Source: Macrostomum lignano (lineage: Eukaryota). Taken from it: 64,000 bases of DNA. The stretch's first letter is position 1; each line of letters starts with the position of its first letter. Below are positions 8,003-60,957 of this stretch, one piece after another. The notes under the pieces were generated by a model that did no database searches, was not told the DNA's origin, and was given only the letters and a program-made list of their open reading frames with translations. The position numbers and the translations under genes are program-made. The DNA lies in the NCBI GenBank assembly GCA_002269645.1, contig NIVC01001020.1:62001-126000 (forward strand), read 5' to 3'.

Positions 8003-11000
8003 ATGCAGCAGCAGCCCCAGCAGCAGCATGATCAGCTACTCGGCCGGTTGCACCCAACCGCGTCGTCAACTTCGATGTTCAATGCTGCCGCTGCCGCTGT
8101 CGGCGACTCCTGGCCCCGAGGCAAGGCCAACTACAGCATGCAGAAGCTGCTGGGCACTGGCGCCACCTCCAAGGTGTACCGGGCCACCTGTCCCGCTCGC
8201 AACAATGCCGAGATCGCCATCAAGGTTGTCAACCTGGACAGCAGCTCCGTGTCAATGGACGAGCTGCACCGGGAGACGCAGGGCATGAAGAAGCTGCGAC
8301 ACGAGAATATTGTTGCCTACTATGGCAGCTTCATCGAGGACAAGTTCCTCTTCATCCTGATGGATCTGTGCGAGCGGTCACTGCTGGATGTGATCAACAA
8401 GGTCAAGGTTGCCAGGAGCATTGCGCACGGGGTGTTTGAGGAGCATACCATTGCTACCATCGTGCGGGAGGTGCTCAAGGGCCTGCAGTACATTCACGAG
8501 AACGGATTGGTGCACAGGTGAATTGCGGGCTGTGATTGACTGCTATTTTTAATTGAAATAAAATTACTGATTCAAGGCGAAAAGAGGGAATTGGAATTGA
8601 GAACAACGGATTTGAGGGGTGGGGAAGTGAAGGATGGAGAAGTAAAGGGTGGGGAAGTGGAGGGTGGAGAAGTAAAGGGTGGGGAAGTGAAGGGAATGAG
8701 GGGTGGGGAAGTGAAGGGTGGTAATGAGGGGTGAGGAAGTGATGGATAGGGAATTGAGGGATGGGGAAAAGAGGGTGGGGAAGTGAGGGATGGGGAAGTG
8801 AAGGGTGGGGAAGTGAAGGGTGGGGAACTGAAAGGTGGGGAAGTGAAAGGTGGGGAACTGAAAGGTGGGGAAGTGAAAGGTGGGGAAGTGAAGGGTGGGG
8901 AAGTGAAAGGTGGGGAAGTGAAGGGTGGGGAAGTGAAAGGTGGGGAAGTGAAGGGTGGGGAAGTGAAAGGTGGGGAAGTGAAAGGTGGGGAAGTGAAGGG
9001 TGGGGAAGTGAAAGGTGGGGAAGTGAAGGGTGGGGAAGTGAAAGGTGGGGAAGTGAAGGGTGGGGAAGTGAAAGGTGGGGAAGTGAAAGGTGGGGAAGTG
9101 AAGGGTGGGGAAGTGAAAGGTGGGGAAGTGAAGGGTTTTAAAAGTGAGGGGTAGGAGGTGAAGGTTGAGAAAGTGACGGGTTTTGGAAATGAAGGATGGA
9201 GAAGGAGAGGTAGAAAGGTGAAATAGTGGAACTGAAGAGGGTTCAGGAGAGTGGAAAAGCTCAGCAAAAGCTGTAGTGCGCTTTCAGTTTCTTATAAAGC
9301 AGTCCGTGTGGCACCCCGACCCTATCCTTCAGGGACATAAAATGCGGCAACATATTGTTAAAGAATGACGGGTCCGTTCAGATTGCCGACTTCGGTGTCA
9401 CGGCCTTCATAAATACCAACCCGCTGACCGGCTTGTCCGTTAATCCGGTGTCCAGGCACACCTTTGTCGGCACCCCCTGCTGGATGGCTCCTGAGGTGCG
9501 AATCGTTCAGTTTGTTCATCTAGAATCCTGACGAGATATGAAATGCTTCTGGAAAATTGTTTTTTATATTATCTGTGGACGGATGTTAGCAGGTCGGAAA
9601 ATGCAGTGCATTGAAGAGTAAAATTGATTAATAAGCAAATCCGCTCACCAGGTGATGGAGCAGCGCCAGTACGGCTACACTACCAAGGCGGATATTTGGA
9701 GTCTGGGCATTACGGCTCTGGAGCTGGTGACCGGCAGTGCACCCTACGCCAAATTCCCGCCACTGAAGGTGATCATCTTGACGCTGAACAATGACCCACC
9801 CAACCTGGCCTCGGTGGAGGAGAAGCCGGGCCAGTACTCCGCTTACGGGCATAAGTTTCGCAAGTTCGTGTCCGCTTGTCTGGTACGGAATGACTCGGAG
9901 AGGCCGAGCGCCAAGCAGATGCTGCAGCATCCCTTTATTAAGGTGAGATTATAGGCTAGATGATGAAGCACCGTAGGTACACTCTATGGGGGAAAATCTC
10001 CCCGTGTGAATAGATCCCCATGTGATTTTATCCCAATATTATCCCCATGTGAGTATATCCCTATGTGAGTATATCCCTATGTGAGTATATCCCTATGTGA
10101 GTATATCCCTATGTGAGTATATCCCTATGTGAGTATATCCCTATGTGAGTATATCCCTATGTGAGTATATCCCTATGTGAGTATATCCCTATGTGAGTAT
10201 ATCCCTATGTGAGTATTTCCTTATTGAATATCTCCCCATGTGAATATCTCCCCATGTGAATATTTCCCCATGTGAATATCTCCCCATGTGAATATCTCCC
10301 CATGTGAATATCTCCCCGTTTGAATATCACCCCATGTGAATATCTTCCCATGTGAATATCTCCGTGTGAATAGATCCCCATGTGAATATCTCCCCATGTG
10401 AATATCTTCCCATGTGAATATCTCCCCGTGTGAATAGATCCCCATGTGAGTTATCTCCCCGTTTGAATATCTCCCCGTGTGAATATCTCCCCATGTGATT
10501 TTATCCCAATATTATCCCCGTTTGAGTATATCCCTATGTGAGTATGTCCCTATGTGAATATCTTCTCGTGTGATTGTCTACACACGCGAATATCTCCCTC
10601 TGTAAATGTCATAACTATGTGAATATCCCCTATAGAAATATCCCTATGGCAGTATCTCCCTACACAGAAGTCACCCACTCGCCCGCCCCGCAGGCCAAAG
10701 CCAAGGACAAGGAGTACATTGTCCGAGCCGTGCTCAGCGGCGACTCGCACCACCTGCACCATCACCTGTCGCAGCTGTCTGGCAAGCGGCGCTCTCAGCA
10801 GCAGAACGACGGCAGCAGCGTCGACTCGGCAACGCCTGTCGCCATCGGTCAACGCGACGTCGAGGACAACGACGACGAAGAGGACGAAGAAGAGGACGAG
10901 TGGCAGTTCCCCGAGGGCGCCACCGCCGCTGCTCCTGCCGCCGCCCCTGTGTCAGAGTCAGCGGCAGAGGTCGACCAGGACAACCCGGACAGCCGGCTGC

Positions 11001-11593
11001 CGTGGCTCCGCGCCGCCCTGTCCGGCCGGCCGGACTGCCGCGGCGTCTACCTGAAGTTCCGCCTGCGCAAGCGCAAAGACGACGCCCCGTCTCCGGCCGG
11101 CGCCGCCGCTCTTCTCTCCGGCCCCGACAGTCTGGCCGCTGGCGCCGGCGGCGGCTCCATTGTTGGCGCTCTGACCTCCGCCGCCGCCGCCGCCGCTCTG
11201 GACGGATCCAGCAACAACGCCGCCACGGCGCCGGCCTCCGGAGCCTCTTCGTCAACGCTCGGCTCGCAGTCGGTCGCTGGGCTCGCCGAGCTGCAGGACA
11301 TCAGCTTCGACTTCGCTGTTGGCAAGGACCGCGCCAACGGCATCACCATGGAGCTGGTGGAGTCCGGCCTGGTCAGCATGCACGACATGGTGGTCATCTC
11401 GCGGGCCCTGCAGACCCTTATCGACGCGCCGTGGGCTCGAGAGCGGGTGTTCCCGCTGAACACACCGCTACCGTCGGGGGTTTTCGCTGACGAAGCCGAG
11501 TTCGTTGGCTACGCTGGCCTGTCGGTCGTGTCCGTGACGGCGGTGTACGAGGATGCCCGCGAGGAGCCGCTGCGGATTGAGAAAGCGGCTTGA
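8003..11593 (+). CDS. OXSR1: STE20-family kinase of the OSR1/SPAK (fray) type with C-terminal CCT domain, 4 exons
   Basis: Exons 8003-8517, 9333-9495, 9652-9942, 10694-11593. Motifs: [53 protein letters not shown]; CCT-like [29 protein letters not shown]...VGYAGLSV. Equally related to STK39. Confidence 0.9.
8610..9140. repeat. 15-nt purine-rich minisatellite (GGGGAAGTGAAAGGT), kinase intron 1
   Basis: Visible. Confidence 0.9.
10000..10660. repeat. 16-nt minisatellite (CCCTATGTGAGTATAT / CCCCATGTGAATATCT), kinase intron 3
   Basis: Visible. Confidence 0.9.
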
Positions 11594-22015: not shown

Positions 22016-22198
22016 TAATTGATTGGCCATAAATCTTCCATAAAGGCTCTCAAACTACCACAGAGATTCGCGCTGTACAATCAACCTCCTGACTAGATTA
22101 AGTTCGAAAAATATATATTAGCTTAAACTTAGCATAATTATAGTTTTGCCGGTAAACTTTAAGATCTAAGAATCCCAGCGGGATGTCTCAATCTGCAG

Positions 22199-23011
22199 GA
22201 GACGGCGAGCTCTGGTCCTCCGAAACCAGCAACGACATCGGAGCCGCAGCCTCCGCAGCAGCAGTGCGCCTACTTTGTTGCTAGGAAGCAGCGCCAGTGC
22301 CGCTTGAGACCGCTGCCCGGACAGTCGCTGTGCGTTGAGCACTGCCCTGCCGGCTCTGCCGCCCCCGGGGACAGCCGCGGTCACCGAATCCCCTGCCCCC
22401 TGGATCCCAAGCACACCGTGTACGCATCCCAGCTGGACAGGCACCTGACCCGGTGCAACTCCCGACCCCGCCTGGTGGGCCAGCCCTTCTATCGGCAGGG
22501 CGTCAACTCTTGCGACTCGCCCGAGGATCGAACCCGCGACCTCAGCTGGAGCCTGCTGGACCCGCCGGAGCACGTGCACCGCCGGCTGGACCAGATCATC
22601 GCCCTGGTCGACTCGCTGATCCCCGACTCCGATGTTGCCGACCAGCCGGGCGACGCCGACCAGCCCATCTGGCCCATGATGGCCGCCCAGCTGAGCAATG
22701 CAGCCAGGCGGGCCGCCACTTCTTTCAAGTCCAACAAGCGGCGGATTAATAAGAAGCCGCCGGCACAGAAGGTGCAGAGCTACTCGTCCTCCTCAGATGA
22801 TGATGATGATGAGGATGATGATGGGGAAGGCGGAGGCTTTGAGAACGGCGAGCCGAGGGCGGTGACCAACCTGAGACAGCAGGCGAATCTCCTGGCTCTG
22901 GCTGAGAAGTCGCAGCTGCTCCGGAGTCCCTGCGCCTACTTTGAGTTTGGCGCCGGCAAAGGCCACCTGTGCCACTGGGTGGCTCGCTACTGGTTCGAGT
23001 CCAATAGTAAG
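22199..23011 (+). CDS. TRMT13: tRNA:m(4)X methyltransferase TRM13, 5' part, interrupted by the LTR retrotransposon
   Basis: CCCH finger CAYFVARKQRQC...CVEH, CHHC finger CPLDPKHTV...HLTRC, SAM motif FEFGAGKGHL. Frame opens after acceptor CTGCAG at 22198 with no ATG. Confidence 0.88.
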
Positions 23012-23881
23012 TGTTGTAACCCGGGTCGGCTTGGGTGCCCAGTCCCGAGTACAATATATATTATATGTGAAATAACAGGCGTTGTGACGCTCTGTCTGTA
23101 CTTTTATGAATACGACGAGCAGGCGTGGCGACGCTCTGCGATAATAATTCGATCCCTCTGGTGTTGTGACACTCAGAGTTCACGCTGCGGCTTGAGGTGT
23201 GGTGACACTCTCGAGTGCTTCTATTCTCTATACCGTAAGGCGTACGCAATATATATGGTAAACGGTACCGTACTACAGAAGCTATATGGTCTCCCGGCGT
23301 TATGACGCTCTGGCAAGAATTCGGCCTAGCAAGCTTCCCGGAAAGAAAGGACTCAAACAGCAGGCGGCTTACCAGTGGCCAGATGACTGTTCACCGTTTA
23401 TTATTCGCAGGTCTCAAGCGCAGTTTCCGACTTCTTCTTAATTCTCCAAGACTCTTCTCAATTAGGCTATTGTGTTTCTTTTATCCAAGTAGCTAATGTT
23501 GCTGTTTCTTTTATCAGGTCTCGCGCTTGCACTCTCGGAGCACACCAAAACACAAAAAGCACGCCGGAGGTGGGCAAGAGCCAGAGTCGCACCATAAATA
23601 GCACCCAAACCCTGGGGCAGACGGCCCCACCGGCTAAGCTCACCAAAACAAACCACGCCGGCCCAGCCAATCAAAACCCCGCCTAAGGGGGGAGGGGCTG
23701 CACCCGCGCCAAAGCTGGCCCGGCCGCAGCCAACCAGCCCTGAGCACGGGGCAGGGGCACGGCTGGGGAGGGGCACGCGCAAAGCCCGGCCGGGGCCAGA
23801 CCCTGCCACGCCCGCCAACCCCCCCCAACCAGCCCCAAAGTGCAACGCGCCCTGCCAACTGACAAGGGCGCATGCACTACA
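23012..23881 (-). repeat. 3' LTR (870 bp)
   Basis: Matches 32163-33033; the only difference I noticed is a C8 versus C9 run. Minus-strand AATAAA near 23397-23402. Confidence 0.96.
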
Positions 23882-23893
23882 CCCTCCCCTCCT
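23882..23893 (-). other. Polypurine tract (AGGAGGGGAGGG)
   Basis: Abuts the TG of the 3' LTR on the minus strand. Confidence 0.9.
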
Positions 23894-24137
23894 AAAAAAA
23901 AACAGGGCGGAGCTCGAACCACGGCGACTGGGATTCCAAATTTTTTAAATAACAAAGCAAAAAAAAATTAAAAACAAAAAAAAATTGGAAACAAACTAAT
24001 GCAAAGGGGAAAAAGAAAAATGGTTGCCGCAAAAGAAATATGAAAAAAAATATACTGGTTTTCTGCACGCAAGTTCGTCAGAGCAACCACGGGGCACGGA
24101 ATAGGCTTTACATCAAAGCTGGCGCCACAGAAAACCA

Positions 24138-24805
24138 TCGCAGGTGGCCGGCAGGACGCGCAGGTGGCCGGGCGGGACGCGCAGGTGGCCGGCAGGAAGT
24201 GCAGATGGCCGGCAGGGCACGCAGGTGGCCGGGCGGGACGCGCAGGTGGCCGGCAGGAAGCGCAGATGGCCGGCAGGAAGTGCAGATGGCCGGCAGGGCA
24301 CGCAGGTGGCCGGGCGGGACGCGCAGGTGGCCGGCAGGACGCGCAAGTGGCCGGCAGGACACGCAGGTGGCCGGCAGGAAGTGCAGATGGCCGGCAGGGC
24401 ACGCAGGTGGCCGGCAGGAAGCGCAGATGGCCGGGCGGGAAGCGCAGGTTGCCGACAGGAAGCGCAGATGGCCGGGCGGGAAGCGCAGGTTGCCGACAGG
24501 ACGCGCAGATGGCCGGGCAGGAAGCGCAGGTTGCCGACAGGACGCGCAGATGGCCGGCAGGGCACGCAGGTGGCCGGCAAGATGCGAAGGCGGCCGGGCG
24601 AGGCGCGCAGATGGCCGGGCGGGAAGCGCACGTGGCCGCCGCAGAAGCCGGCAGGAAGCGCACGTGGCCGCCGCAGAAGCCGGCAGGAAGCGCAGGTGGC
24701 CGCCGCAGAAGCCGGCAGGAAGCGCAGGTGGCCGCCGCAGAAGCCGGCAGGAAGCGCACGTGGCCGCCGCAGAAGCCGGCAGGAAGCGCAGGTGGCTGCC
24801 GCAGA
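24138..24805. repeat. GC-rich minisatellite in the element's 3' untranslated region (GCGCAGGTGGCCGGCAGGAA-like units)
   Basis: Visible; overlapping ORFs are repeat translations. Confidence 0.88.
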
Positions 24806-24929
24806 AGCCGCTGAGCCATTCCCCCAGGAAGCTTGACCCCACTAGCATGCAAATAAACCCATACAGTACGAGCGTAACAACATACATACAAGTAAGCAGA
24901 AAATACAGTATGAATCGGAACTGGTCACC

Positions 24930-25877
24930 CTAGCGAACCCGAAGTCCAGGGAGACCGACGCAGCTTTTCAGGACCTCGAGCAGCCTGCCGGGCCGGCGCA
25001 AACCGAACAGCGGGATGAGCTCGTGACAGAGCTGTCGGACGAAACAATCAAAACTCTGCCTAGACCAGTAACGGCGGCCTGCTCTCTGACGCTTTACCGG
25101 AGCGATATCTCTGCGGATGAAGAACAACGCCTGCAGCAGGACCATTGACAGTGCGCTCCTCGGTTCTCGCTGCGAGTCTCGAAACAGCCGTCTCATAGCC
25201 GTGAGCACTGACACGATTCCGTCCGACTGTCCAGCCAAAATATGCTTCATCAAACGATGGCGGAGCTGACGCGCAGCTGCCGATAACGACAGCTTTTCAT
25301 CATCCCATATTGCTCCCGACGCGCGATGTGAGACAACCTCCTTGCTTTCCGGTACATCGATCTCCATAGCTTCTGACTCACTACTTCCGGAGGAGCCATC
25401 CGATGCCAGCAACTCGTCTTCTTCTTCTGTGTCGATGCTACACTCATCCGACTCCTCGCTCTCATCGTCGTCCGAGATTAGAATGTAGCCATCCGCTTCG
25501 TAATCGTTCCTCTGTCCCTGTCTCCCCTGCCTGAGACCAGCTTCCTTGCGCTGAGCTTCTTCAACTTCTCGCCTTTGCTGTACTCCCTCTTCGATGTCCG
25601 CCGGCATTCTTACACCAGTAGGAGGTATGAACGTCATTGCGAAGGTTACAGCCTCGTCATACGGGATTGATTTATCGCCCAACTGGTCGTACATCGCTCG
25701 GCGATATGGACACGATAGAATTCTACCAGCAGTCTCAATTTCTTGGAAACGGCGTCCTGCGAGTTCCTTGTCCGGGTGCTTGTCCGGGTGCCAGAAGAGC
25801 GCTAGCTGTCGATAGACTCGCCTGATCTCGGCACGTTCGGCTGTGTGTCCGACTTGGAGGACAGCGTACAAATCCAT
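24930..25877 (-). CDS. DnaJ/Hsp40 J-domain protein, 315 aa, third ORF of the retrotransposon
   Basis: MDLYAVLQV...EIRRVYRQLALFWHPDKHP...RFQEIETAGRILS..YRRAMYDQLG is a canonical J-domain with HPD, followed by an acidic tract and a helical C-terminus. ATG is directly preceded by TTGCAG. Confidence 0.9.
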   Translation of the reverse strand: MDLYAVLQVGHTAERAEIRRVYRQLALFWHPDKHPDKELAGRRFQEIETAGRILSCPYRRAMYDQLGDKSIPYDEAVTFAMTFIPPTGVRMPADIEEGVQQRREVEEAQRKEAGLRQGRQGQRNDYEADGYILISDDDESEESDECSIDTEEEDELLASDGSSGSSESEAMEIDVPESKEVVSHRASGAIWDDEKLSLSAAARQLRHRLMKHILAGQSDGIVSVLTAMRRLFRDSQREPRSALSMVLLQALFFIRRDIAPVKRQRAGRRYWSRQSFDCFVRQLCHELIPLFGLRRPGRLLEVLKSCVGLPGLRVR

Positions 25878-26300
25878 CTGCAAAGCAACGTACTCAAACC
25901 TGCGACACACTGTCCCTGACTCCAGATTCTACTCCTGCTCCCCTCTTGCCAGAGCGTCATCTCCTCGGACCGTGGCCCGCGGTACCCTGCATCGTAAAGT
26001 CCCAGCGCAAATTCGAGTTGTCACCGGATGCCAGTCCGAATACCCTCCACCGATGCATAGATTTTGTAGGCAAAATTTGATTCTCGTCAAAACTTCGATG
26101 AAGATGCGATTAAAATGACTTAATGACGCATTAACGAATTTCTTGAATGACGCATTGGCGAACTGCTCGTACTCATGATGAATGATGCATTGATGAAGTA
26201 CTCGTATTTATGATGAATGACGCATTCGCGAAATATTTTTCTGGCTTTTAACGATAATCGCATATGAAACTGATGAGACTTCACGATGACGAGTAACCCA

Positions 26301-29300
26301 TTAGAATGTCACTGGCTGGCCGTAGCGATCCGGCGGCCGTCGCAACCTTCCGGACCTTCGAGGCTCAGGTGCAGCTTCCACCGGGTTATGAGTAGGCTGC
26401 GGGTCGTCAACCAACTCCATCTGCTCTTCCAGCACCTCGGCGACTTCCTCGGCGTCCTGTGGCGGCATCAGTTGAGGCCGAGTCCAAGTCTCGCATTCCG
26501 CCTCTGTCTCCGAGTCCGTCTCGTCGACCACCTCCGGCGGTGCCGCGGTCCTAACTGGTGTTTCCAGGGCGGCCGGTCGAGCGAACTTCCGGAGGTTGTT
26601 GAAGTGGACGAACTTCGACTTTTTACGATTTGACGGGTTTTCCACTTTGAAGAGCACCTCGGATCTTCTTTCGAGCACCTTCACTGGGCCGAGCCAGCTT
26701 ACGTGAAACTTTGCGGCTTCGTCTGGTTTCAGGGCGGGGCTGTAGACGAAGACATGGTCACCCTCCTGAATATCGGATCCTCGGGTTCTTTTATCGTACT
26801 GGTCCTTCTGTCGCCGCTGATAAGTATTCAACTGCTGTCGAGCAGCGCGATGAGCTGTCTGCAATTTGTCTTCTAGCTCCTTGACGAAATTTACATGCGA
26901 ATCGACAGGCTGTGGCGGCTGGTCAGTCAAGTCTATCGGTAGGCGCATCTCCGTGCCATAGACCATGTAGTGGGGAGTATAACCCGTTGCTCGATGCACG
27001 CTTGATCGGTACGCCATTAACGCAGAGCTGACGAATTCTTCCCAGTCGTTTCGTCCTGAGTCCTCTAGGCAGCACTTGAGGATGGATTTTAAACTTTTAT
27101 TGAAGTTTTCTACTTGTCCATTTCCGCTCGGATGATAAGCTGTGGTTCTGGACTTGCGGATCTCGAGTATCCTGCACATTTCGCGCATCACTTGCGATTC
27201 GAAGTTCCTTCCTTGGTCACTGTGCAAAGTACTCGGACATCCATGCTGGCTAATCCATCGATTGAAAAGCGCCCTTGCCACCGTCCTTGCCTTCTGGTTG
27301 CGAAGCGGGTACGCGTCAGGCCACTTCGTAAACGAATCTTGGACTGTCAGGAGATAAATGTTTCCAGCCTTACTCCGCGGTAGCGGCCCGACAATGTCCA
27401 TCATGACGCAATCGAATGGTGCTGCGAATGTCAACGGTTGCAGGGGTGCTCGGTTTCGCTTGCCCGGCTTTGACTTGCAGCAGGTGGCACAACCGCGAAT
27501 ATATTCTTCAATGGCACGAGACAATCCTGGACGCCAGTAGCGCTGAAGCACTTTAAATTTTGTCTTCGCAAAGCCCATGTGGCCACCTCCCACTCCCTCG
27601 TGTAGGGTTTTCAAGATACGATCCAATGCCTTTCGTGGCAGCACCATTTGATACTCATCGCGCCTGTCTTTGTTTCTCACAAGGAGCACGTTCTCTTGCA
27701 GCACCAGGTCGTCTTTTCGAGTCCAGACGGCTCTAGCCAGTGGACTCCAAGCTGTCTCGCTTTTATCTGGAACTGGGTTTGAGCCAAGCGCTTCCTTTAC
27801 TGTTCTCAAATCGTCGTCTTGATCCTGCTCGCTTGCCAGATTGCCGGCTGAGAATCGTTCAAATTCGACTGCATTTAGTCCTTCTGGATGCTGCGCACAT
27901 GCCGGGCATGTCTCCGCTCCGAAATGTCTCCGTACTGGCTTCCTCGACATTGCGTCCGCGTTGCCATGCGATCGACCTGGTCTGTGAACGATGCGGTACT
28001 GAAATGGAGCCAACTTCTCCAACCAGCGAGCAACCTGTCCCTCGGCGTCACTGAAGTTTTTTAACCATTGCAGGCTGCTGTGGTCCGTTCGCAGACAGAA
28101 CGCTTTTCCAAGCAGATAGTATCTGAACTTCATGATGAAAGTCACAACCGCTAGTAGTTCTAAACGAGTCGTACAATAGTTGCGTTCGGCTTGATTTAGT
28201 GTCTTGGACCCATAGGCGATCACTCGTTCTGCTCCATCTGGCTGGACTTGAGAAAGTACCGCTCCTATGCCCATCTTCGAACTGCCATCAGTATCGAGGA
28301 TAAACTCTCCGGCATCCGGGGAGAAATCCGGATGAGCCATAACCTCTGAACTTGTCATTCGTTCCTTCAATGTTTCGAACGCCAGCTGCTGTTCCGTTTT
28401 CCATTCAAACTTTGCGTCTTTTGTTGTCAATCGAGTTAGAGGCGCTGCTATTGCGGCGAAATCTTTAATAAACTTTCTGTAATAGCCACACAGGCCCAAG
28501 AATGAATGCAGCTCCGTCGAGGATCGCGGTGTTGGCCAGTTCTTCACTTCTTGAACTTTCTCCTCATCGGTACTGATGCCAGCAGCCGACAGCGTGTGAC
28601 CGAGAAATTTCACTTGCTTTTGCAAAAAGTGACACTTCTGGGGCTTCAGGCACAAATTTGCTTGCCGCAACTTGCTGAATATTTCCTCCAGTCTTCTCAG
28701 GTGTTCATCCACGTCGGTTGACCAAACCAGTAGATCGTCGATGTAGACGAGACAGGTTTTCCACATCTGCTTGTCCAAAACGGCTGCCATCAACCTGGTG
28801 AATGTTGCTGGGCTGTTCACTAAGCCGAACGGCATAACCTTCCATCGAAATTGTCCGCGATGCGGCACTGCAAACGCCGTCTTGTCCTGATCCTGAGGTC
28901 TCACCCCTACTTGCCAAAACCCGCTGTGAAGGTCCATTGTCGAGAAGATCTTGGCGCCGTGTACTGCCTCCAGCGCATCATCGACCCTCGGCATCGGCAC
29001 TGCATCCTTGACGGTGACCTCATTCAACTTCCGATAATCGACGCACATCCTCATTTCCCCTGATTTCTTCTTTACGCACACCAAAGGAAAGCACCATGGT
29101 GACTGTGCTTCTTCGATCTGCCCCTTTTCCAGCAACTCGTTGACTTGACGATCTACTTCTGGCTGTAAGTGGGGAGGCAGACGACGCGGTGGGATCTTGA
29201 TTGGGCGCGCATTCTCGGTGTTAATTTCATGCTCCACCACGGTAGTTAACTTGCTTGAAGTCTGCTTGGTCGTGAACACATCGCCGTAACTCCGGACAAG

Positions 29301-30461
29301 GATTCTAAATTCTTCGTCTTCTTTCGTCGACAGTCCACAGTCGCCGTACGAGTTTGGTAGCAAGTCTGCTTCCGAAGGGCTGTCGCTGCCTTGGAACTTC
29401 GGCTCTTCCTGTGGATCGTCTCCTGACTCTACGGCTAAGAGCTTGATGGTGTTCAACGGTTCGGTGGATTCTAGGGGGCAGAACCACCCGAGCGTACAAC
29501 CTTGGCGAATTCTGACTGGCTCCTCCGTGATATTGATGAGTCGAGTCGGCAGACGGCTGCCGCTATTTGGGATCACTAAGGCCTTAGCAAGCCAGCGGCC
29601 AGCTGCCAAATCGTTCGCCCCGAGATTCTCAGTTAGGCCGACACACCCTCTGTTCCGTCGTCCTTTGCTCTCCAGCCTTGCTGACAGAACTGCTTGATGA
29701 CCTGGCGGTATTGTGCTGGACCTTGTCGCCAAAATTCTGCAAACGATCGGGCGCTCAGCTTGCCATCGGAACGGGATTGCAGTGTCCTGCACTGAAAAGA
29801 CAGCTGTCTTGTAGTCGATGACGCAACTGTTGTCCCTGCAGAAGTCGGATCCCAATACCAGTTGGTACTTCACTCCGCTGACTACCAAGGCTGGAGTATC
29901 TATTACTTTATCAGCGATTGACAGTCGCAACAGGACTGTTCTCTCGATTTCGATCGGGCTGCCGTTTGCTAAGCTAACGTAGCCTTCAGCACCGGCCAAA
30001 TCTCTGACGCTCTGTTTCGGCATACTTTGGTAAGCTTCCCGTGAGATAATGGTGCAGGAAGCTCCCGAGTCCACTAGCGCGTTCACCCTCCGCCCTGCGA
30101 TTGAGGCCGTAACATATATCGACGCAGGATTGATTTGAATTGACTGAGGTGCGTTGACGGTGATTGGGCGCTGCGACTGTGCAAAACCGGCTAGTTGATG
30201 GTGAGGTGCAGTACCGGACGCTGGAGGCTGATGAGGCACTGTACCGGACACTGGATGCTGATGAGACGCAGTACCGGACACTGGAGGCTGATGAGACGCA
30301 GTACCGGACACTAGAGGCTGATGAGACGCAGTACCGGACACTGGATGCTGATGAGGCGCAGTACCGGACACTGGATGCTGATGAGACGCAGTACCGGACA
30401 CTGGATGCTGATGAGATACTGTACCGGACACTGGAGGCTGATGAGACGCAGTACCGGACAC
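26301..30461 (-). CDS. pol: Gypsy Pol (aspartic protease, RT, RNase H, integrase)
   Basis: ALVDSGAS, MPFGLVNSP, YIDDLL, LDTDGS, HEGVGGGH...C..C, DDE core, WLGPVKV. The frame continues upstream to about 31036 if a 1-nt loss at about 30486 in the 30-nt repeat is restored. Confidence 0.96.
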   Translation of the reverse strand: MSGTASHQPPVSGTVSHQHPVSGTASHQHPVSGTAPHQHPVSGTASHQPLVSGTASHQPPVSGTASHQHPVSGTVPHQPPASGTAPHHQLAGFAQSQRPITVNAPQSIQINPASIYVTASIAGRRVNALVDSGASCTIISREAYQSMPKQSVRDLAGAEGYVSLANGSPIEIERTVLLRLSIADKVIDTPALVVSGVKYQLVLGSDFCRDNSCVIDYKTAVFSVQDTAIPFRWQAERPIVCRILATRSSTIPPGHQAVLSARLESKGRRNRGCVGLTENLGANDLAAGRWLAKALVIPNSGSRLPTRLINITEEPVRIRQGCTLGWFCPLESTEPLNTIKLLAVESGDDPQEEPKFQGSDSPSEADLLPNSYGDCGLSTKEDEEFRILVRSYGDVFTTKQTSSKLTTVVEHEINTENARPIKIPPRRLPPHLQPEVDRQVNELLEKGQIEEAQSPWCFPLVCVKKKSGEMRMCVDYRKLNEVTVKDAVPMPRVDDALEAVHGAKIFSTMDLHSGFWQVGVRPQDQDKTAFAVPHRGQFRWKVMPFGLVNSPATFTRLMAAVLDKQMWKTCLVYIDDLLVWSTDVDEHLRRLEEIFSKLRQANLCLKPQKCHFLQKQVKFLGHTLSAAGISTDEEKVQEVKNWPTPRSSTELHSFLGLCGYYRKFIKDFAAIAAPLTRLTTKDAKFEWKTEQQLAFETLKERMTSSEVMAHPDFSPDAGEFILDTDGSSKMGIGAVLSQVQPDGAERVIAYGSKTLNQAERNYCTTRLELLAVVTFIMKFRYYLLGKAFCLRTDHSSLQWLKNFSDAEGQVARWLEKLAPFQYRIVHRPGRSHGNADAMSRKPVRRHFGAETCPACAQHPEGLNAVEFERFSAGNLASEQDQDDDLRTVKEALGSNPVPDKSETAWSPLARAVWTRKDDLVLQENVLLVRNKDRRDEYQMVLPRKALDRILKTLHEGVGGGHMGFAKTKFKVLQRYWRPGLSRAIEEYIRGCATCCKSKPGKRNRAPLQPLTFAAPFDCVMMDIVGPLPRSKAGNIYLLTVQDSFTKWPDAYPLRNQKARTVARALFNRWISQHGCPSTLHSDQGRNFESQVMREMCRILEIRKSRTTAYHPSGNGQVENFNKSLKSILKCCLEDSGRNDWEEFVSSALMAYRSSVHRATGYTPHYMVYGTEMRLPIDLTDQPPQPVDSHVNFVKELEDKLQTAHRAARQQLNTYQRRQKDQYDKRTRGSDIQEGDHVFVYSPALKPDEAAKFHVSWLGPVKVLERRSEVLFKVENPSNRKKSKFVHFNNLRKFARPAALETPVRTAAPPEVVDETDSETEAECETWTRPQLMPPQDAEEVAEVLEEQMELVDDPQPTHNPVEAAPEPRRSGRLRRPPDRYGQPVTF

Positions 30462-30940
30462 TGGATGCTGATGAGGTACTGTACCGACACTGGATGCTGA
30501 TGAGACGCAGTACCGGACACTGGAGGCTGATGAGACGCTGTACCGGACACTGGATGCTGATGAGGCGCAGTACCGGACACTGGATGCTGATGAGCCGCAG
30601 TACCGGACACTGGATGCTGATGAGGTACTGTACCGGACACTGGAGGCTGATGAGACGCAGTACCGGACACTGGATGCTGATGAGGTACTGTACCGAACAC
30701 TGGATGCTGATGAGACGCAGTACCGGACACTGGAGGCTGATGAGACGCTGTACCGGACACTGGATGCTGATGAGGCGCAGTACCGGACACTGGATGCTGA
30801 TGAGCCGCAGTACCGGACACTGGATGCTGATGAGGTACTGTACCGGACACTGGAGGCTGATGAGACGCAGTACCGGACACTGGATTCTGATGAGGCGCAG
30901 TACCGGACACTGGAGGCTGATGAGATGCGGTACCGGGCGT
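30205..30940 (-). repeat. Coding 30-nt tandem repeat (about 24 units, GTASHQHPVS) between Gag and protease
   Basis: Plus-strand unit CAGTACCGGACACTGGATGCTGATGAGACG. Confidence 0.92.
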
Positions 30941-30990
30941 TTGATGATGATGAGATGAGATGACGGCTTGTTCGGAGGCTGACGAATTGC

Positions 30991-31036
30991 AGGGGCTCAC
31001 TTGCCTCCAGCTGGTGGGCCCCTCTTGCCTTTTCCC
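30991..31036 (-). promoter_or_regulatory. Candidate -1 ribosomal frameshift signal: slippery G GGA AAA, 6-nt spacer, hairpin
   Basis: Heptamer at 31036-31030 in gag frame; AGGGGC-C-CAC...GTG-A-GCCCCT stem at 31023-30991; the -1 frame is open into the repeat/pol region. Confidence 0.72.
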
Positions 31037-31917
31037 GGCTTTGGGCACTGGAATGAGAGATGGCCTATCTCCCCGCAGTTGTAGCACTTGACACCGCTAC
31101 GCTGCTTCGAGCTGGACGGAGCCGCCTGCTTGGATTGTTGCTTGTCTTGAAGGCCGGGTTCGGGCGGCTCCTGCTGGCCCTGCTGCATCTGCTCCATCCG
31201 TCGGATCTTTTCTTCCATTTCCTTTACTTTTTGACGCAGTTGGCGTAGCTCCTCGTCTTTGCCGGTGTCACCTGTCGACGTTTCGGTGGCAAAGGCATTC
31301 AGCCCAGCCCTGGGTCTGGCTTTGGACTGGGTCGAAGACGCCTTCTGGGCTGCTTCAAGTTGTCTTACTGTTCGAATGGCATCGGTGAGGTTGGCCGGCT
31401 GCTGCAGGTACAGTCTTTCTCGGACAGTGTCGGTTACTCGAACGCCTTTTAGAAATCTGTCTTTCGCCAGCTCTGTCCTGGTGTCGGCATCCGCGGTGGG
31501 GAAGGCATTGCGCACCAACTCCAGCAGCTCGTCCCCGTAGGTCTCCACAGACTCCTTGTCTAGCTGATCTCGATTCGATAATTCAAAACGGTAGTCCTGG
31601 GCTGTTCTGTTCATGGTGAACCGCGCCAGTAGTGCATCCGTGAATTCCCCGTACTCGATGTCGTCTGCCAAGTCCAGCTTATCAACGGCAGCGTAGGCTG
31701 TTGTGAGGTCGAGTAGGCCGATCAGGTGCGGCCGCCTGGCTTCTTCTTCTATACCGACAGCCTCGCAGTACTCGTTGAAACTCTGCAGCCATAGGCTGAA
31801 ATTCATCGTTGGTATGTACTTGGGCGGCTTCGAGAGTCGTGGCGCTGCTCGGTCGGCGTTGGCTCTGAGGCGCGCAGCCAGCGCATCGATCAGTTGGTCC
31901 ATAGCTTGATCACCCAT
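30997..31917 (-). CDS. gag: Gypsy Gag with CCHC zinc knuckle
   Basis: CYNCGEIGHLSFQC near the C-terminus. The ORF track labels this ORF +, but the protein only reads from the minus strand (plus-strand TCA at 30997-30999 is the stop). Confidence 0.93.
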   Translation of the reverse strand: MGDQAMDQLIDALAARLRANADRAAPRLSKPPKYIPTMNFSLWLQSFNEYCEAVGIEEEARRPHLIGLLDLTTAYAAVDKLDLADDIEYGEFTDALLARFTMNRTAQDYRFELSNRDQLDKESVETYGDELLELVRNAFPTADADTRTELAKDRFLKGVRVTDTVRERLYLQQPANLTDAIRTVRQLEAAQKASSTQSKARPRAGLNAFATETSTGDTGKDEELRQLRQKVKEMEEKIRRMEQMQQGQQEPPEPGLQDKQQSKQAAPSSSKQRSGVKCYNCGEIGHLSFQCPKPGKGKRGPPAGGK

Positions 31918-32141: not shown

Positions 32142-32159
32142 GTCCCTGTTCGGGCGCCA
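32142..32159 (-). other. Primer-binding site for tRNA-Lys (TGGCGCCCGAACAGGGAC)
   Basis: 18-nt match to the classical tRNA-Lys(UUU) PBS, 3 nt after the 5' LTR end. Confidence 0.93.
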
Positions 32160-32162
32160 ATT

Positions 32163-33033
32163 TGTTGTAACCCGGGTCGGCTTGGGTGCCCAGTCCCGAG
32201 TACAATATATATTATATGTGAAATAACAGGCGTTGTGACGCTCTGTCTGTACTTTTATGAATACGACGAGCAGGCGTGGCGACGCTCTGCGATAATAATT
32301 CGATCCCTCTGGTGTTGTGACACTCAGAGTTCACGCTGCGGCTTGAGGTGTGGTGACACTCTCGAGTGCTTCTATTCTCTATACCGTAAGGCGTACGCAA
32401 TATATATGGTAAACGGTACCGTACTACAGAAGCTATATGGTCTCCCGGCGTTATGACGCTCTGGCAAGAATTCGGCCTAGCAAGCTTCCCGGAAAGAAAG
32501 GACTCAAACAGCAGGCGGCTTACCAGTGGCCAGATGACTGTTCACCGTTTATTATTCGCAGGTCTCAAGCGCAGTTTCCGACTTCTTCTTAATTCTCCAA
32601 GACTCTTCTCAATTAGGCTATTGTGTTTCTTTTATCCAAGTAGCTAATGTTGCTGTTTCTTTTATCAGGTCTCGCGCTTGCACTCTCGGAGCACACCAAA
32701 ACACAAAAAGCACGCCGGAGGTGGGCAAGAGCCAGAGTCGCACCATAAATAGCACCCAAACCCTGGGGCAGACGGCCCCACCGGCTAAGCTCACCAAAAC
32801 AAACCACGCCGGCCCAGCCAATCAAAACCCCGCCTAAGGGGGGAGGGGCTGCACCCGCGCCAAAGCTGGCCCGGCCGCAGCCAACCAGCCCTGAGCACGG
32901 GGCAGGGGCACGGCTGGGGAGGGGCACGCGCAAAGCCCGGCCGGGGCCAGACCCTGCCACGCCCGCCAACCCCCCCCCAACCAGCCCCAAAGTGCAACGC
33001 GCCCTGCCAACTGACAAGGGCGCATGCACTACA
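32163..33033 (-). repeat. 5' LTR (871 bp)
   Basis: TGTAGTG...TTACAACA on the minus strand. Confidence 0.96.
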
Positions 33034-33037
33034 TAAG

Positions 33038-36000
33038 AAAGGGGAAGGTGAGCCCGCGGACAGCAACGCCTACCTGTTGATTGATCGCGGCTCGGTGAGG
33101 AACAAGCTGGACTGCGCGCACAAATATTCGGGCCAGCGATTCTCCCGGATTCGGGTAGACATTGCCGACTTGCTGCTGCGGCCGCTGCTCCTTCCGCCTG
33201 CTGAGGGGCCGATGAAAACCGCAGTTGCTGGCAGTGCGACGTCAAGTAGAACACTTTCCACGATAGCAAAGACTTCGGTTCCCATAGCAACCATTGAGAA
33301 GAAGCCTGTTTCCATGGAAACCAAATCGTCTGATCCGGTAGCGTCAGTTTCCATCGACACAGAAACCTCGGTTTCCATAGCAACTATTAGCAAGTCGGTT
33401 TCTATAGAAAACAAACCGTCTGATCCGATAGCGTCTGTCAACGCAAAATCCGTTGCCATAGCAACTAAAACTTCAGCTACCACAGCAACCGTTGAAAGGA
33501 AACCAGTTTCCATAGAAGCCAAGCCGTCTAATCCTATAGCGTCTGTTGACACTGTGTCCGTTTCCATGGAAACAGAAAACTCTGCTCCCAAAGAAATCAT
33601 TGAGAAGAAGCCTGTATCTGTGGAAACTAAACCGTCTGACCCTTTGGCGTTTGTCAACGCGGATTCCGTTTCCATGAAAACTGAAACCTTGGTTTCCATA
33701 GAAACAAAACCATCTGACCCTGTATCATCTGTAGACACAGTGCCTGTTTCCATGGCAACCACTGACTCGGACCCAATAGCCTCCGCCGTTGGCAATCCTG
33801 TTTCGGAAACGCCCGCTTCTTCCAAGCAGAAAGGAGGAAAAAAGTTGGCTGCACCTGCCGTGACAACATCGGCCGCTGATGTTCGAGCGGCATCCAGGTG
33901 CGGAGTCACGGCCCTGGGCAAGCACCTGTGCGGAGCGGCCACGGATCTGGCACTGCGGTGTCTGGCGGGACTGGACTCTGATGCAGAAGACGGCAATAGC
34001 AGGTGATTGTCCTATTGAGCTCAGTGCATGTCGCTAAACTTCTTTGGTCACATTAGCAGTATAGAGGCTTAGGTATACTCAGCAACATTGAAAAGTCGCC
34101 ACTCTGTGCGCCAGTGAGCAATTTCTCTTGGAATATTCTGAAATAGAAGATACGAGAAAACTGATTGGGGTAGCTTTACTCCGTCCAACCCTCGGACACC
34201 GCTCCCCCACTTCATTCCTCAACTGGTCTGCCGTGGCGTAGCTGAGTTGGGTCACTCGCAAAAATTGAGAAACTTCACCTGCACTCTAAAAAGTGGCAAC
34301 CACAGAACTTTTAAAACACTTCTTTCCTTTTTTACCAGTGACTTTTTTTGCCTTTTTAATCAGTCGAAAGGCTCAGCCTATCGCATTCTCAAAAATTTTC
34401 TTTATTTTTCAAAGTCTAATAGTAATACTAATAATTGATTGCACCTGCTCTAATGGGCAGATGTGCAACCGACAGCTCAGCCGCAGCTATTGCGCGGCGC
34501 ATCTGAAGGCTGCGTACGGCTGTTCAGTCCAATTAAGGACTGGGGGGTCGCCACACACACCCTCAATTACCCCAGCTAATGCTGGCACCCATTTTACAGC
34601 TGGGTGAACTGAAGCAATGTAGAGGTTGCATGTCTTGCTCAAGGACACAAATTGTTCCCGAGTTGGGTCGAGGATCGAACCCCTTGACCTCCAAGTCGTG
34701 AGTCCGACGCTCTGACCACTGGGCTGCAACCCCTATGGTCCTTATACTTGAAGGTGTCAGTAATTTCTCATAAATTATATCATTTTTAATTGAGGAAACA
34801 TGTTGCTCTAGCCTTGCGCTGCAAAATTTGATGTTCAGCAAGCTCTCCTGGCCTGAGCATGCAAGCCGCTGGCTCACAGCTGTCATTCGTGCCTTCCACA
34901 CTGCAGAAGCCACGGCTGCAGCGATAGCAAACGGGCGCGCATTGCGGGCCAACTGGCTGAGGCCGACAGGTCCACAGGCGTCGGGCCTGTGGGCGGCGTG
35001 ATCGCGCTGTGCTGCCACCAACGCTGCCTCTGGTCCGCCTACGTTGGCAAGCGGCGAATGGCAAGTTTGGGCATCGGGCCGGAGGACTTCCACGCCATCA
35101 GCCGCATGGCGGGCTGGGCCACCTGCGCCAGCAAAGCGGCGCGGCTGAAGCGGAAGCCACAGGAAGACAGGTGTATTGTCGAGCTTTACCTTTTATTCAC
35201 TCTTGTCTAGTTTGCTATTTAAACTGATTGACACATCAAGCACGCCATAAAGTGAAACACCAAGCATATGAAGTAACACATGAAGCACATCATAGAGTAG
35301 CACATTAAGCATGGAGTGACGCACCAAGCACACCATGGAGTGACACACTAAGCACATCATGGAGTGACACACCAAGTGCATCATGGAGTGACACACCAAG
35401 CACATCATGGAGTGACACACCAGGAACATCATGGAGTTACACACCAAGCACATCATGGAGTGACACACCAGGAACATCATGGAGTGACACACCAAGCAAA
35501 TCATGGAGTGACACACCAAGCACATCATGGAGTGACACACCAGGAACATCATGGAGTTACACACCAAGCACATCATGGAGTGACACACCAAGCACATCAT
35601 GGAGTGACACACCAGGAACATCATGGAGTGACACACCAGGAACATCCTGGAGTGACACACCAGGAACATCATGAAGTGACACACCAAGCAAGTCATGGAG
35701 TGACACACCAAGCATATCATGGAGTGACACATCAGGAACATCATGGAGTGACACACCAAGCATATCATGGAGTGACACACCAAGCATATCATGGAGTGAC
35801 ACACCAAGCACATCATGGAGTGACACACCAAGCAAATCATAGAGTGACACACCAAGCACACCATGGAGTGACACACCAAGCACACCATGGAGTGACACAC
35901 CACTGCAACTCATCATTGCAGACGGGAGCTCATCGGTCTGAAGTGCAAGCGGCTTATTGACTCGGGCCGGGTGGCCTTCCTCACGGAGCAGCTGGGCTAC

Positions 36001-52564: not shown

Positions 52565-55500
52565 TCAATTAACACACTGCTTCTTGTGGACCTTCCAGTG
52601 CTTCAGCTGGCAGTCTCTATCGCAGTAGAAGGCCTTCTTGCACCTGCTGCAGCGCTGCGAAGCGTCCCGCTTTCCACACGAGCTACATCGGTCTCCGTGG
52701 CTCGACTCACTTGGCAACTGGGAGTTCAGCGGGCTGGAATTCTCCAGATCATACAGCAGAAACATCTTCTGCAGCATTTCCTTCGGTGGGCAATCGTTAA
52801 CGGGTTCAAAGCACGGCAGCCGCACCTCGGGACTCTCAGCCTGGAGTCCTCTCCGGAAATACTCCCTGGCCATTGTCATGTCTTCAAAGCCCAAATACTC
52901 GAACGCTATGCAATAGCAAGCCTCAGGAATGTGACGATCGTCCTTTTCGTTGGCAGAGATGTACTCTTCATACGCTTCAATGACTCTTCTGCGATCGCTC
53001 AGCCGCTGATGATGCCTGATGGCCGACGCTTTGCCGTAAAGCCAATGGGGCTCCCAGTCTAGCTCTAAAGCTCGCTCAAAGGCCCTTAAAGCGCTGATTC
53101 CATCTCCGTTGAATCCGTACATGTTGCCTAGATAGTTGTAATAGTCAGCCACATTAGGGTTCAGATTGGTACAAGCCAGCGCCATTCGAAGGAGTTCAGC
53201 AACATTTGAAAGTTTTTTAACACTGCAATAATTAATTATTACAAAATAAGCTTCAGAATCCTGAGGATTCTTTTCAAAGGCTGCAGTGGCCGCATCGAAG
53301 AGTTTCTTCCAGGTAGAATTATAAATAATAAGAGGCTGCCAGGTTTTATCAGCCAGTCGGTAGAGTCGAAAAGCTTCTGGGCCGTTGTTGCTATCTAAAG
53401 CAGAGCGCATTTGGTCCAAAAGTTCGAAGCCGATGAAGTACTTTTGCGCGGTTTTTGACCCTTGCGCAGCCTTTTTTGCCATCAACTGCTCCGAAGTTTG
53501 CATAGTTGACATGTGATTGGATCCCGCAGGGTGCAGCGACACACCCATCGTCTGCTTACAATACTGGAAAAGGTCACGAAACACTTCCTTCGACTTGTGG
53601 CTTGATGCAAAGGATTCGACATACCTTGCAAATCTTTCATCTTGACTAAGACCATTTTTAGATAGGCCACGAGCAGCTTCAAATAACAAAATCTGAGAAG
53701 AAGCTTTCAACAGTTCTTCCACTTCTTTTTGGCTGTCTTTCTTGGACCTGAGCAGCCATCTACGAGCTTCAGTGGGGTTATTTTCACAACCTTGTCCAAG
53801 ACTCAGCATGCACCCAAAAACCCACTGTGCCTCAGCATCACCGCTCTCGGCAGCCTTTCGAAGAAAGAAAGCCGCATCTTCTTCTTTTCCTAGCTGCAGA
53901 AGCAGCTTGCCCAGAGCAGGAAAGGCCCTTTCATGGTTCAGGTCCGAAGCTTTCCTCAAATACATTTCGGCCAGTTCAAAGTCCTGTTCGAATCCTCCTT
54001 CTCCGTGCAAGTAGTTCCTTCCGAGGAGAAACAGCGCCTCTTTGTCGTTAGCCGCTGCCTTCTCTTCCACGATTTTTCTTGCTGAGTTCATGCGCTTCGC
54101 CTTCATGGCTCCGCGCCGCATTTGCTGCTGTAGCGCCTCCAGAGCGCCTGGTAGGCCTTGGTCCGCAGCTGATTTGAGCAGTTCAACCGCCTTCTCAGAG
54201 TCGGCTGGTCCTCCCTCGCCTTCGATGAGCATCCCAGCTAATTTCAGCTGCGCCTCCGACTGTCCGAGGTCCGCGGCTTTCTGGAGCCACCATCGGGCGG
54301 AGGTCGGACTCCGCTCGCAGCCAGCTCCGTTGTAGAAGGCCAGCCCGAGGTTGCTCATGGCTGATGCGTAGCCGTGACGAGCGGACTTAAGAAACCATTT
54401 GAATGCGAGCTTGTCATCCTTCTCCACGGCCATGCCGTCTCTGTAGGCCACGCCGAGGGCGTTCTCCGCCTCCGCCACACCAATGTTGAGAAACACGTCG
54501 TCCATGGCCGATAAGTACGGCTTCTGCTCGGCGGCTTGGAGACACAGCTGAAAATGCTTTGCTGGATCCCGAGCCAGTCCTGCATTGCCGTCTTTGTACA
54601 TGATGGCCATGTTGTACAGACCCTGCGCACTGCCTTGCTTTGCAACGGACTCAAAGATCTCAAATGCCTTCTGCTCTTCGGTGATGTCGCCTCTGCCGGA
54701 CTGCAGAATCTTGTGGGCCTTATCCAGCTCGCTGATGCTCTGCAAAATGGTGCTGTCTATGGGGCTCACTTCGTCAGGTGAAATTCCCGATATACTCTCT
54801 ACTTGGCAATCTCGCAGCTTCTTGTAGAGATCGCTGCTTTGGGTTTGGCTGCTTCCTTCTGCACCTACATCCTGCTGGCTGTCCAAAACAAGAGCTGTGC
54901 AAAGTTGCTCTCGTAGAAGAAGGGTCTCGTCTGTAGAGTCGATTCTGAGGCCAGTCTGACACGCATCCAAGGCTGGTTCATGTAGCCGCAGCTTATAGAG
55001 AGCTTCAGAAAGAATTCTGTGGAACTTAATCTGGCTGGGGTCAAGTCCAATTGCATCTTCAGCATCTTCTCGAGCAAGATCGAACTTGCGCAAATTGATT
55101 TCGCACAGAGCTCGGTTTGAGTACAGAACAGCAACATTTGTATTACATTGAATTGCCTTTGTGTAGCAATTCATTGCCTCCAACCATCTTCCTTTCTTAT
55201 AATGCTCATTGCCCTCTGACTTGAGCTTCTCCCAGTCTCCGATTGAGACTCCAGCAAAGTTGGAAATTTCTTGCTGGCACTCGCTCAATCCCATCAAGGA
55301 CGCGAGCTTTAATAAGCACTCAAGATCGTGCTCAGATCGGTGCACATCAAAGTCTTGGCGAGAATGTCGGTCACGGATTGCCTTCGCACGCTCCAGAAGA
55401 TGCTGCAGCAGCTGCCGATTTTGAGGTTCCAAGCCTGAAAAAGCCTCATCGACCTTGCTGGACATCATCTTCAGCAAATCGTTGAAATCCAGTTGGTTCT

Positions 55501-60955: not shown

Positions 60956-60957
60956 GT

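Follow-up and report, generated by a model that had tools for sequence, protein, structure and literature searches.

Envelope-bearing Ty3/gypsy retrotransposons, such as the Drosophila errantiviruses and Osvaldo, carry a third open reading frame (ORF) between pol and the 3' LTR, which is expressed from a spliced subgenomic RNA. For the springer subclade of Drosophila, splicing of env from an AU dinucleotide has been reported (PMC12992720). Other parasites encode a J-domain, or a mimic of it, that is aimed at host Hsp70; described cases include polyomavirus T antigens, the phage protein Rki and HSV-1 ICP22 (PMC13254874), and, according to the title of a reference cited there, the SV40 T antigen combines its J-domain with a targeting motif to break up Rb-E2F complexes. 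Transposons are mentioned neither in its section 8 nor in the passages cited here.

The element described here resembles the envelope-bearing elements in the position of its third ORF and in its predicted spliced subgenomic RNA, and it resembles the viral and phage systems in encoding a J-domain that would be aimed at host Hsp70. It differs from errantiviruses and Osvaldo in its product, a soluble J-domain protein without evident signal peptide or transmembrane (TM) helix rather than a fusogen. It belongs to a known kind, Ty3/gypsy elements whose env slot holds an accessory gene; its cargo is unusual.

The element and the protein encoded behind pol

The window, a stretch of 64,000 nucleotides of the Macrostomum lignano genome, contains a full-length, young Ty3/gypsy LTR retrotransposon on its minus strand. 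As is characteristic of this group, gag is followed by protease, reverse transcriptase (RT), RNase H and integrase, and the element has paired TG...CA LTRs, a primer binding site, a polypurine tract (PPT) and a short target-site duplication. The 5' LTR (871 nt; 32163..33033) and the 3' LTR (870 nt; 23012..23881) differ by a single 1-nt indel, and a 4-nt duplication, TAAG (23008..23011 on the plus strand, with the second copy at 33034-33037), lies in a coding exon of host TRM13, which together indicate a recent insertion. Internally, we find a primer binding site (32142..32159), which we take to be of the tRNA-Lys type, a 306-aa gag with a CCHC zinc knuckle (30997..31917), a 30-nt tandem array reaching from the end of gag to the protease (30071..31055) and pol (26301..30140), in which Pfam recognizes RVT_1, RT_RNaseH, Integrase_H2C2, rve and Integrase_p58_C and the protease was identified by eye from its DSG motif. 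A GC-rich tandem array with a unit of about 20 nt (24110..24820) and the PPT (23882..23893) complete the 3' part.

Several other features were recorded. The interrupted TRM13 gene, encoding a tRNA methyltransferase, occupies 22191-23011 and 33034-35200 on the plus strand, and its upstream exon stretch matches two further places in the genome at 97-98%. At 10646-11593 (plus strand), an exon with an OSR1_C domain probably belongs to a WNK/OSR1-type kinase gene. The minus strand holds an intronless 1014-aa ORF with TPR and Sel1 repeats and a MYND finger (52565-55609), as well as an intact non-LTR retrotransposon (57251-62487) with an ORF1 of 509 aa and an ORF2 of 1234 aa (endonuclease, RT, RNase H), flanked by inverted repeats at 56299-56593 and 63724-63997. 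Elsewhere in the genome, an intronless SUMO gene is matched with the same score at seven places (L137, L138 and five others), several of which form inverted pairs on one contig.

The third ORF (24930..25877, minus strand) starts 423 nt past the pol stop (26301), and the PPT and 3' LTR follow about 1 kb further on; the original prediction of an intact 315-aa sense ORF in this position is therefore confirmed. Its only Pfam domain is DnaJ, which covers the whole profile from residue 2 to 64 (25686..25874; E 5.5e-18, 65.3 bits) and includes the predicted FWHPDKHP stretch, with HPD at 25782-25790. The J-domain folds into four helices and superposes on several solved J-domains at about 1 Å rmsd. Overall, the AlphaFold2 model comprises this confidently predicted J-domain, a long helix up to residue 122, a disordered acidic linker (residues 122-194) and a C-terminal five-helix domain (residues about 200-307; 24957..25280), which gives a mean pLDDT of 84 when modelled alone. 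The five-helix domain is basic (25 K/R vs 10 D/E) and carries the loop KRQRAGRR (25071-25094); a GRGRRxW-like form of this loop is kept in most families. Both the acidic tract and the basic patch PVKRQRAGRR are present as they had been quoted, and the helical C-terminus anticipated from sequence appears in the model. TM helices are usually called at a 19-residue hydropathy of about 1.6. Given that the maximum over 19 residues is 1.33 and that the J-domain begins at residue 2, no signal peptide or TM anchor is evident, which bears out the view that the gene is not env. Features of class A and B Hsp40 proteins (a G/F-rich region and beta-sandwich C-terminal domains) are absent, as Pfam finds only DnaJ and the C-terminus is all-helical. 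By its domain content, the product is a J-domain protein, putatively of the class C type.

For the five-helix domain, none of the 10 members searched scored over the cut-off for a Pfam family, and Foldseek gave no match at E <= 0.001 in the PDB or among viral structures. The best structural match, obtained with VIA, was to cobalamin-binding cap bundles (Z 8.0, rmsd 2.2, 76 aligned residues), in a Z range common for helical bundles; we take this likeness to be a frequent helical arrangement. Leads from the Atlas were weak and discordant (DnaJ-X at 0.76; HEAT/ARM-like folds at 0.90-0.94, with recognition below threshold), and matches of a PDB sequence search (A3) were dominated by the J-domain columns. 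The parallel to T antigens that had been drawn for this protein holds for the logic of its design; it does not extend to the LxCxE Rb-binding motif, which is absent from the 10 genome families scanned and occurs in one of four relatives from outside this genome (P0009), and Rb binding by this route was rejected accordingly. A phylogeny against host DNAJ genes, as had been called for, was built, with deep supports mostly under 75 and two host genes only.

Predicted expression route

The ATG of the third ORF directly follows TTGCAG (25878..25883), as had been pointed out, and the ORF is probably made from a spliced subgenomic mRNA in which a donor in the LTR would be joined to this predicted acceptor at the ORF start. 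The predicted donor, G/GTAAGC (32518..32524, last exon base 32524), lies downstream of a putative TATA-like box, TATTTAT (32745..32751), and the junction would connect 32524 to 25877. A similar box precedes the donor in all seven LTRs scanned (families A, C, E, F2, G, H and I), and in each a GTRAG (GTAAG in six) is found 145-228 nt past the box; dinucleotide shuffles place GTRAG in that interval in 15-32% of cases per LTR, and the interval was picked after three LTRs had been seen. On the acceptor side, the distance from YAG to ATG is 0 nt in families A, B, C and H, 1 nt in G, 7 nt in I and 16 nt in E.

Families F and F2 have a different arrangement, in which YAG replaces the start and the acceptor is followed by TG and then by the J-domain frame. 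No in-frame ATG precedes it in either of the two F copies; in F2 there is one 20 codons upstream. Given that the donor exon ends in A in both families, splicing would create the ATG, although four of eight donors end in A and the TATA-like box of F was chosen by eye. An A/TG start of this kind would resemble the AU splice of springer env.

The donor and acceptor signals on which the prediction of splicing rests are thus conserved; no junction was recovered. Contigs of four sequencing runs, for which an RNA source is a guess, span pol as well as the third ORF and cross 25878 unspliced, and over 24830-30060, a range that excludes the LTR donor, they contain no splice joint or loose end. Such contigs drop rare transcript forms, and among the 20 runs with this sequence 14 were guessed to be RNA and none is recorded as such. 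Flatworm spliced leaders end in AUG. We rejected spliced-leader trans-splicing as a general route, as the leader AUG would be out of frame in families E, F, F2, G and I; for A, B, C and H it is possible. One transcript cluster in supplement 2 of an M. lignano study (row 695; PMC12801592) is annotated only as DnaJ, with a score of 65.2 and a mild induction by heat (log2FC of 1.2), and might correspond to this ORF (65.2 vs 65.3 bits, from differing Pfam versions). The LTR of the present element contains no heat-shock unit nGAAnnTTCn, and heat-shock control of this LTR was therefore rejected.

Retention, selection and variable modules

A genome search with the third ORF yielded 127 matches among 126 scored candidates of 252. 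The family of the window's element, family A, occupies 26 places at at least 95% identity (split matches merged), and the full frame is free of stops and frameshifts in 20 of these copies; in the other six the frame has been disrupted, variously by a stop, by small deletions, by an insertion and by an internal deletion. In seven of the 20 intact frames the stop codon has become TGG, resulting in read-through. Among the family A copies, TGG stands at the ORF stop in nine (L011-L015, L018-L020, L023), and the frame there enters the GC-rich repeat array. When copies were collected by their integrase instead (99-100% identical), 25 of 26 had the third ORF behind it and the remaining one was truncated in the spacer. 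The M. lignano assembly has been described as redundant (PMC12801592), so that these counts may overstate the number of independent insertions.

The gene is not confined to family A. In a survey based on one or a few loci per diverged group, a J-domain and the same C-terminal domain were found 3' of the integrase in families B, C, E, F, F2, G, H and I, with fragments lacking an integrase in D. An integrase tree of 19 loci resolves seven well-supported lineages (A/B, C, E/N, F/F2/K, I/M, H and G), whose branching order is unsettled, and carriers occur in all seven of these deep lineages at integrase identities of 49-59%. Homologues in the same position in such diverged families argue that the third ORF is not there by chance. 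Two J-domain matches, L035 and L043, turned out to be ordinary host DNAJ genes and were rejected as element copies. Both domains also occur, at 31-55% identity, in four clusters from outside this genome (Logan, JGI); a metagenome scan returned 80 loci, all matching the J-domain only, a viral scan gave one phage match, by chance, and a profile search of longer proteins retrieved nothing beyond an M. lignano gene model. Among the matches examined, this C-terminal domain did not occur in any host gene.

Purifying selection acts on the third ORF across families, in line with the expectation that it would be retained with dN/dS below 1; neither absence nor decay prevails among the family copies. 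By the Nei-Gojobori method (95% bootstrap intervals), the 299 codons compared between A and B gave a dN/dS of 0.163 (0.10-0.24). The value was 0.238 (0.13-0.46) between C and C2 and 0.279 (0.08-0.70) for a pair within G, and three close H pairs gave 0.19-0.29, with one interval that includes 1. Whole-ORF values hence span 0.16-0.29; in the diverged pairs, where synonymous substitutions approach saturation, they are rough. Taken separately, the C-terminal domain gave 0.22, 0.13, 0.22 and 0.08 in four pairs. For the J-domain, two diverged pairs yielded 0.08 and 0.07, and the close pair 0.33 with an interval including 1. Within the J-domain, 11 of the 12 element sequences aligned contain HPD; family I lacks it, and the F2 copy examined reads RPD.

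Families A and B are 92% identical in nucleotide sequence through the end of pol and 69% identical in the cassette, with the switch located in the spacer near position 26110 by comparison with L028: recombination has exchanged the cassette between lineages. The gene has also been lost. Non-carriers comprise families K, M and N, one truncated relative of H and the outgroup. In family K (L128, G000:C150 and related contigs), an internal deletion has removed the J and helical domains and left a TatD-like remnant; K is a deletion derivative of F2, and we rejected its interpretation as a TatD cassette swap. K has LTR pairs on at least four contigs, so the third gene is dispensable in cis. Family M (L130, L131, L134), whose integrase is sister to that of I, has a different ORF of 207-247 codons without Pfam match in the same slot, and in N the slot holds repeats only. 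LTR pairs were also found in E and F, and family H gave more than 15 matches in the genome search. Since some relatives lost the gene and yet multiplied, we regard it as accessory.

Between the two conserved domains, the linkers are otherwise unalignable across families, and a short motif recurs regardless: in A, B, C, D, F, F2, G and the outside relatives P0155, P0007 and P0008, a hydrophobic core precedes S/E and acidic residues. The consensus, a hydrophobic core plus SD(D/E)E within a disordered region, has the sequence characteristics of a SUMO-interacting motif (SIM). A strict SIM pattern, drawn up after the motifs had been seen, matched five of six linkers tested and 0.2-0.6% of shuffled linkers; P0007 fails it, and E, H, I and P0009 show no clear SIM-like motif. 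In family A the candidate is YILISDDDE (residues 131-139; 25461..25487), which resembles the validated SIMs reported for ICP0, IVISDS (PMC3174244), and IE2, CIVISDSEEE (PMC5646861); the SIM of PML was included in the comparison. The linker of family H contains a chromodomain instead (Pfam E 1.4e-12; L033:1933-2112), whose best solved matches are Swi6 and HP1. The Tyr and Trp of its aromatic cage are kept, and Val occupies the third position, which is aromatic in HP1 and Swi6, making methyl-lysine binding doubtful. This chromodomain sits inside the third ORF and not on the integrase. The third ORF of families F, F2 and I runs on into a TatD-like domain (L038/L144, L136/L143 and L127/L147; Pfam E 3e-8, 2e-8 and 0.005, respectively). 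Over the aligned stretch, the Glu of the IGE motif is retained and the next conserved metal-binding His is replaced by Gln; the domain is thus probably not a normal nuclease, and it might represent a pseudo-nuclease cargo. The J-domain and the five-helix domain are the constant core of the protein, to which the SIM-like motif, chromodomain and TatD-like domain are added as variable parts. Two of these three modules, the SIM-like motif and the chromodomain, point to nuclear, silenced chromatin.

Proposed function and relation to known systems

The reading we favour, to which we give a little under an even chance, is that the third protein acts as a nuclear adaptor that would bring Hsp70 to SUMO-dependent silencing complexes and counteract silencing. 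As an accessory and presumably trans-acting gene of this Ty3/gypsy clade, the third ORF would recruit and activate host Hsp70 through its J-domain. The SIM-like motif (or the chromodomain, in one family) and the basic helical domain would target SUMO-modified or heterochromatic nuclear complexes, and Hsp70 might then loosen or strip the silencing machinery on the element and so relieve its silencing. We base this preference on the SIM-like and chromatin-reader modules and on the exchange and loss of the cassette: exchange together with loss suggests a host target and a role that is helpful rather than essential, and a cassette that moves while pol stays is in keeping with a host target rather than the cognate Gag or Pol. 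SUMO has been tied to piRNA-guided silencing in flies and worms, and Piwi is reported to silence transposons in M. lignano (PMC4604429). Several observations stand against the adaptor. Short acidic-hydrophobic motifs also bind other partners, family I keeps the ORF though HPD is lost (and the F2 copy examined has RPD), and the model does not explain the TatD-like domain of F, F2 and I. Moreover, host J-proteins on chromatin are reported to silence as well as to activate, as described for SILENZIO (PMC8616336) and likewise for PKL-associated J-domain proteins (JDPs) (bioRxiv 10.64898/2026.09.14.751395).

Hsp70 might instead be directed to the folding of Gag or Gag-Pol, to the RT-RNA complex, or to particles during their assembly or uncoating. 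Taking coats apart is a classic task of J-proteins, as for clathrin (PMC13254874), the gene occupies the env slot, and its basic helical domain could bind RNA or capsid. We nevertheless consider this unlikely. The cassette moved among lineages independently of pol, several LTR-flanked copies exist of family K and of families in which the ORF is missing or replaced by another (help in trans being possible), and neither a SIM-like motif nor a chromodomain would be expected for such a job. Of the two targets named in the original prediction, a host silencing factor would hence fit better than Gag/VLP assembly, judging from the SIM-like motif, the chromodomain, the cassette exchange and the multiplying non-carriers. 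The same evidence of loss and exchange weighs against a helper of integration, which would tether the pre-integration complex to chromatin or have Hsp70 dismantle this complex after strand transfer. Chromovirus integrases carry a chromodomain, so that of family H could be read in this sense, as could the basic helical domain and the nuclease-like TatD fold of three families, which could act on DNA ends; with Gln in place of a conserved His, this fold is probably not a normal nuclease, and we find an integration role improbable. Hardly better placed is a protein that leaves the element's chromatin untouched and, in the manner of T antigens, Rki or ICP22, shifts the Hsp70/heat-shock balance or acts on a regulator of stress or of the cell cycle, such that stem or germ cells become permissive. 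It has precedent in viral and phage J-proteins (PMC13254874, section 8), and other LTR families of M. lignano are reported to use heat-shock elements (PMC12801592), but the present LTR has no such unit, LxCxE is missing from the genome families scanned, and broad manipulation has been argued to be costly for a germline element (PMC6719617).

Two further readings have still lower standing. Given that proteins joining a J-domain to a chromatin reader act as repressors in plants, the third protein could recruit Hsp70 and repressors to damp the element, much like SILENZIO, and thereby keep damage to the host in check; families with the gene are young and have many copies (26 in A, more than 10 each in E and H), which suggests no restraint though it is compatible with it, and we rate self-restraint as quite improbable. 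That the element captured a piece of a host DNAJ gene which does nothing for it is the least probable reading of all. The gene is broken or lost in several copies and lineages, as passive cargo would be, but this reading is largely refuted by the low dN/dS, well under 1 in each of the three protein parts, even with synonymous sites near saturation; in addition, open frames are kept down to 26-33% protein identity, splice signals are conserved, and the C-terminal domain has no host counterpart among the matches examined.

In its complete form, the adaptor proposal states that a clade of animal LTR retrotransposons encodes an Hsp70-recruiting anti-silencing protein, aimed by a SUMO-binding motif or a chromodomain, which dismantles nuclear, piRNA-guided, SUMO-dependent complexes. 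We advance this version more tentatively, as a possibility that falls clearly short of an even chance. If true, a retrotransposon would encode a protein that antagonizes a silencing pathway of animals, a class of protein which, according to a 2019 review, had not been described, and the env slot would have been reused for a modular and exchangeable counter-defence cassette. The third gene offers a concrete animal candidate that is old, selected, modular and present in young multi-copy families. M. lignano provides transgenesis and RNAi, and natural variants (without HPD, without SIM, with a chromodomain, with a TatD-like fusion, or with the gene lost) serve as built-in controls. Even if the target were the particle or integration, a retrotransposon that encodes an Hsp70 co-chaperone joined to an unclassified helical domain would be undescribed within the literature searched.

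The novelty claimed for an LTR element with a J-domain stands for that literature, in which we found no description of one; Repbase, Dfam, GyDB and subscription journals lay outside its scope. An LTR catalogue for M. lignano lists Ty3 families including 40 of the Gmr1/Osvaldo type (PMC12801592), among which the present family may be found. A term search of its main text for DnaJ, J-domain, Hsp40, chaperone or extra ORF returned nothing, and in its supplements DnaJ occurs in gene annotations only. Automatic gene models already fuse the third ORF to pol, under the names 'J domain-containing protein' (UniRef) and hypothetical protein (NCBI), without interpretation. The J-domain gene of this element is real, selected and clade-wide, and apparently undescribed in the literature searched, though a catalogue note may exist.

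With respect to known systems, the third protein departs from T antigens, Rki and ICP22 in its carrier, a retrotransposon, in lacking LxCxE, helicase and origin-binding domains, and in having a partner domain without match. We know of no sequence relation between the third ORF and VANC of the Arabidopsis VANDAL transposons. The two are alike as accessory anti-silencing genes, a role proposed here, in elements with tandem repeats (PMC6719617), and differ in that VANC is encoded by plant DNA transposons and targets DNA methylation, its anti-silencing activity having been shown. SILENZIO, which works with MBD5/6, and the PKL-associated JDPs likewise join a J-domain to a chromatin-reading module; as described, they are host-encoded, plant and repressive, and we found no similarity to them outside the J-domain. 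In the herpesvirus counter-defence proteins ICP0 and IE2, as in the third protein, Ser and acidic residues come after a short hydrophobic core. ICP0, however, is a RING ligase that degrades SUMO conjugates, whereas the third protein would remodel such conjugates via Hsp70.
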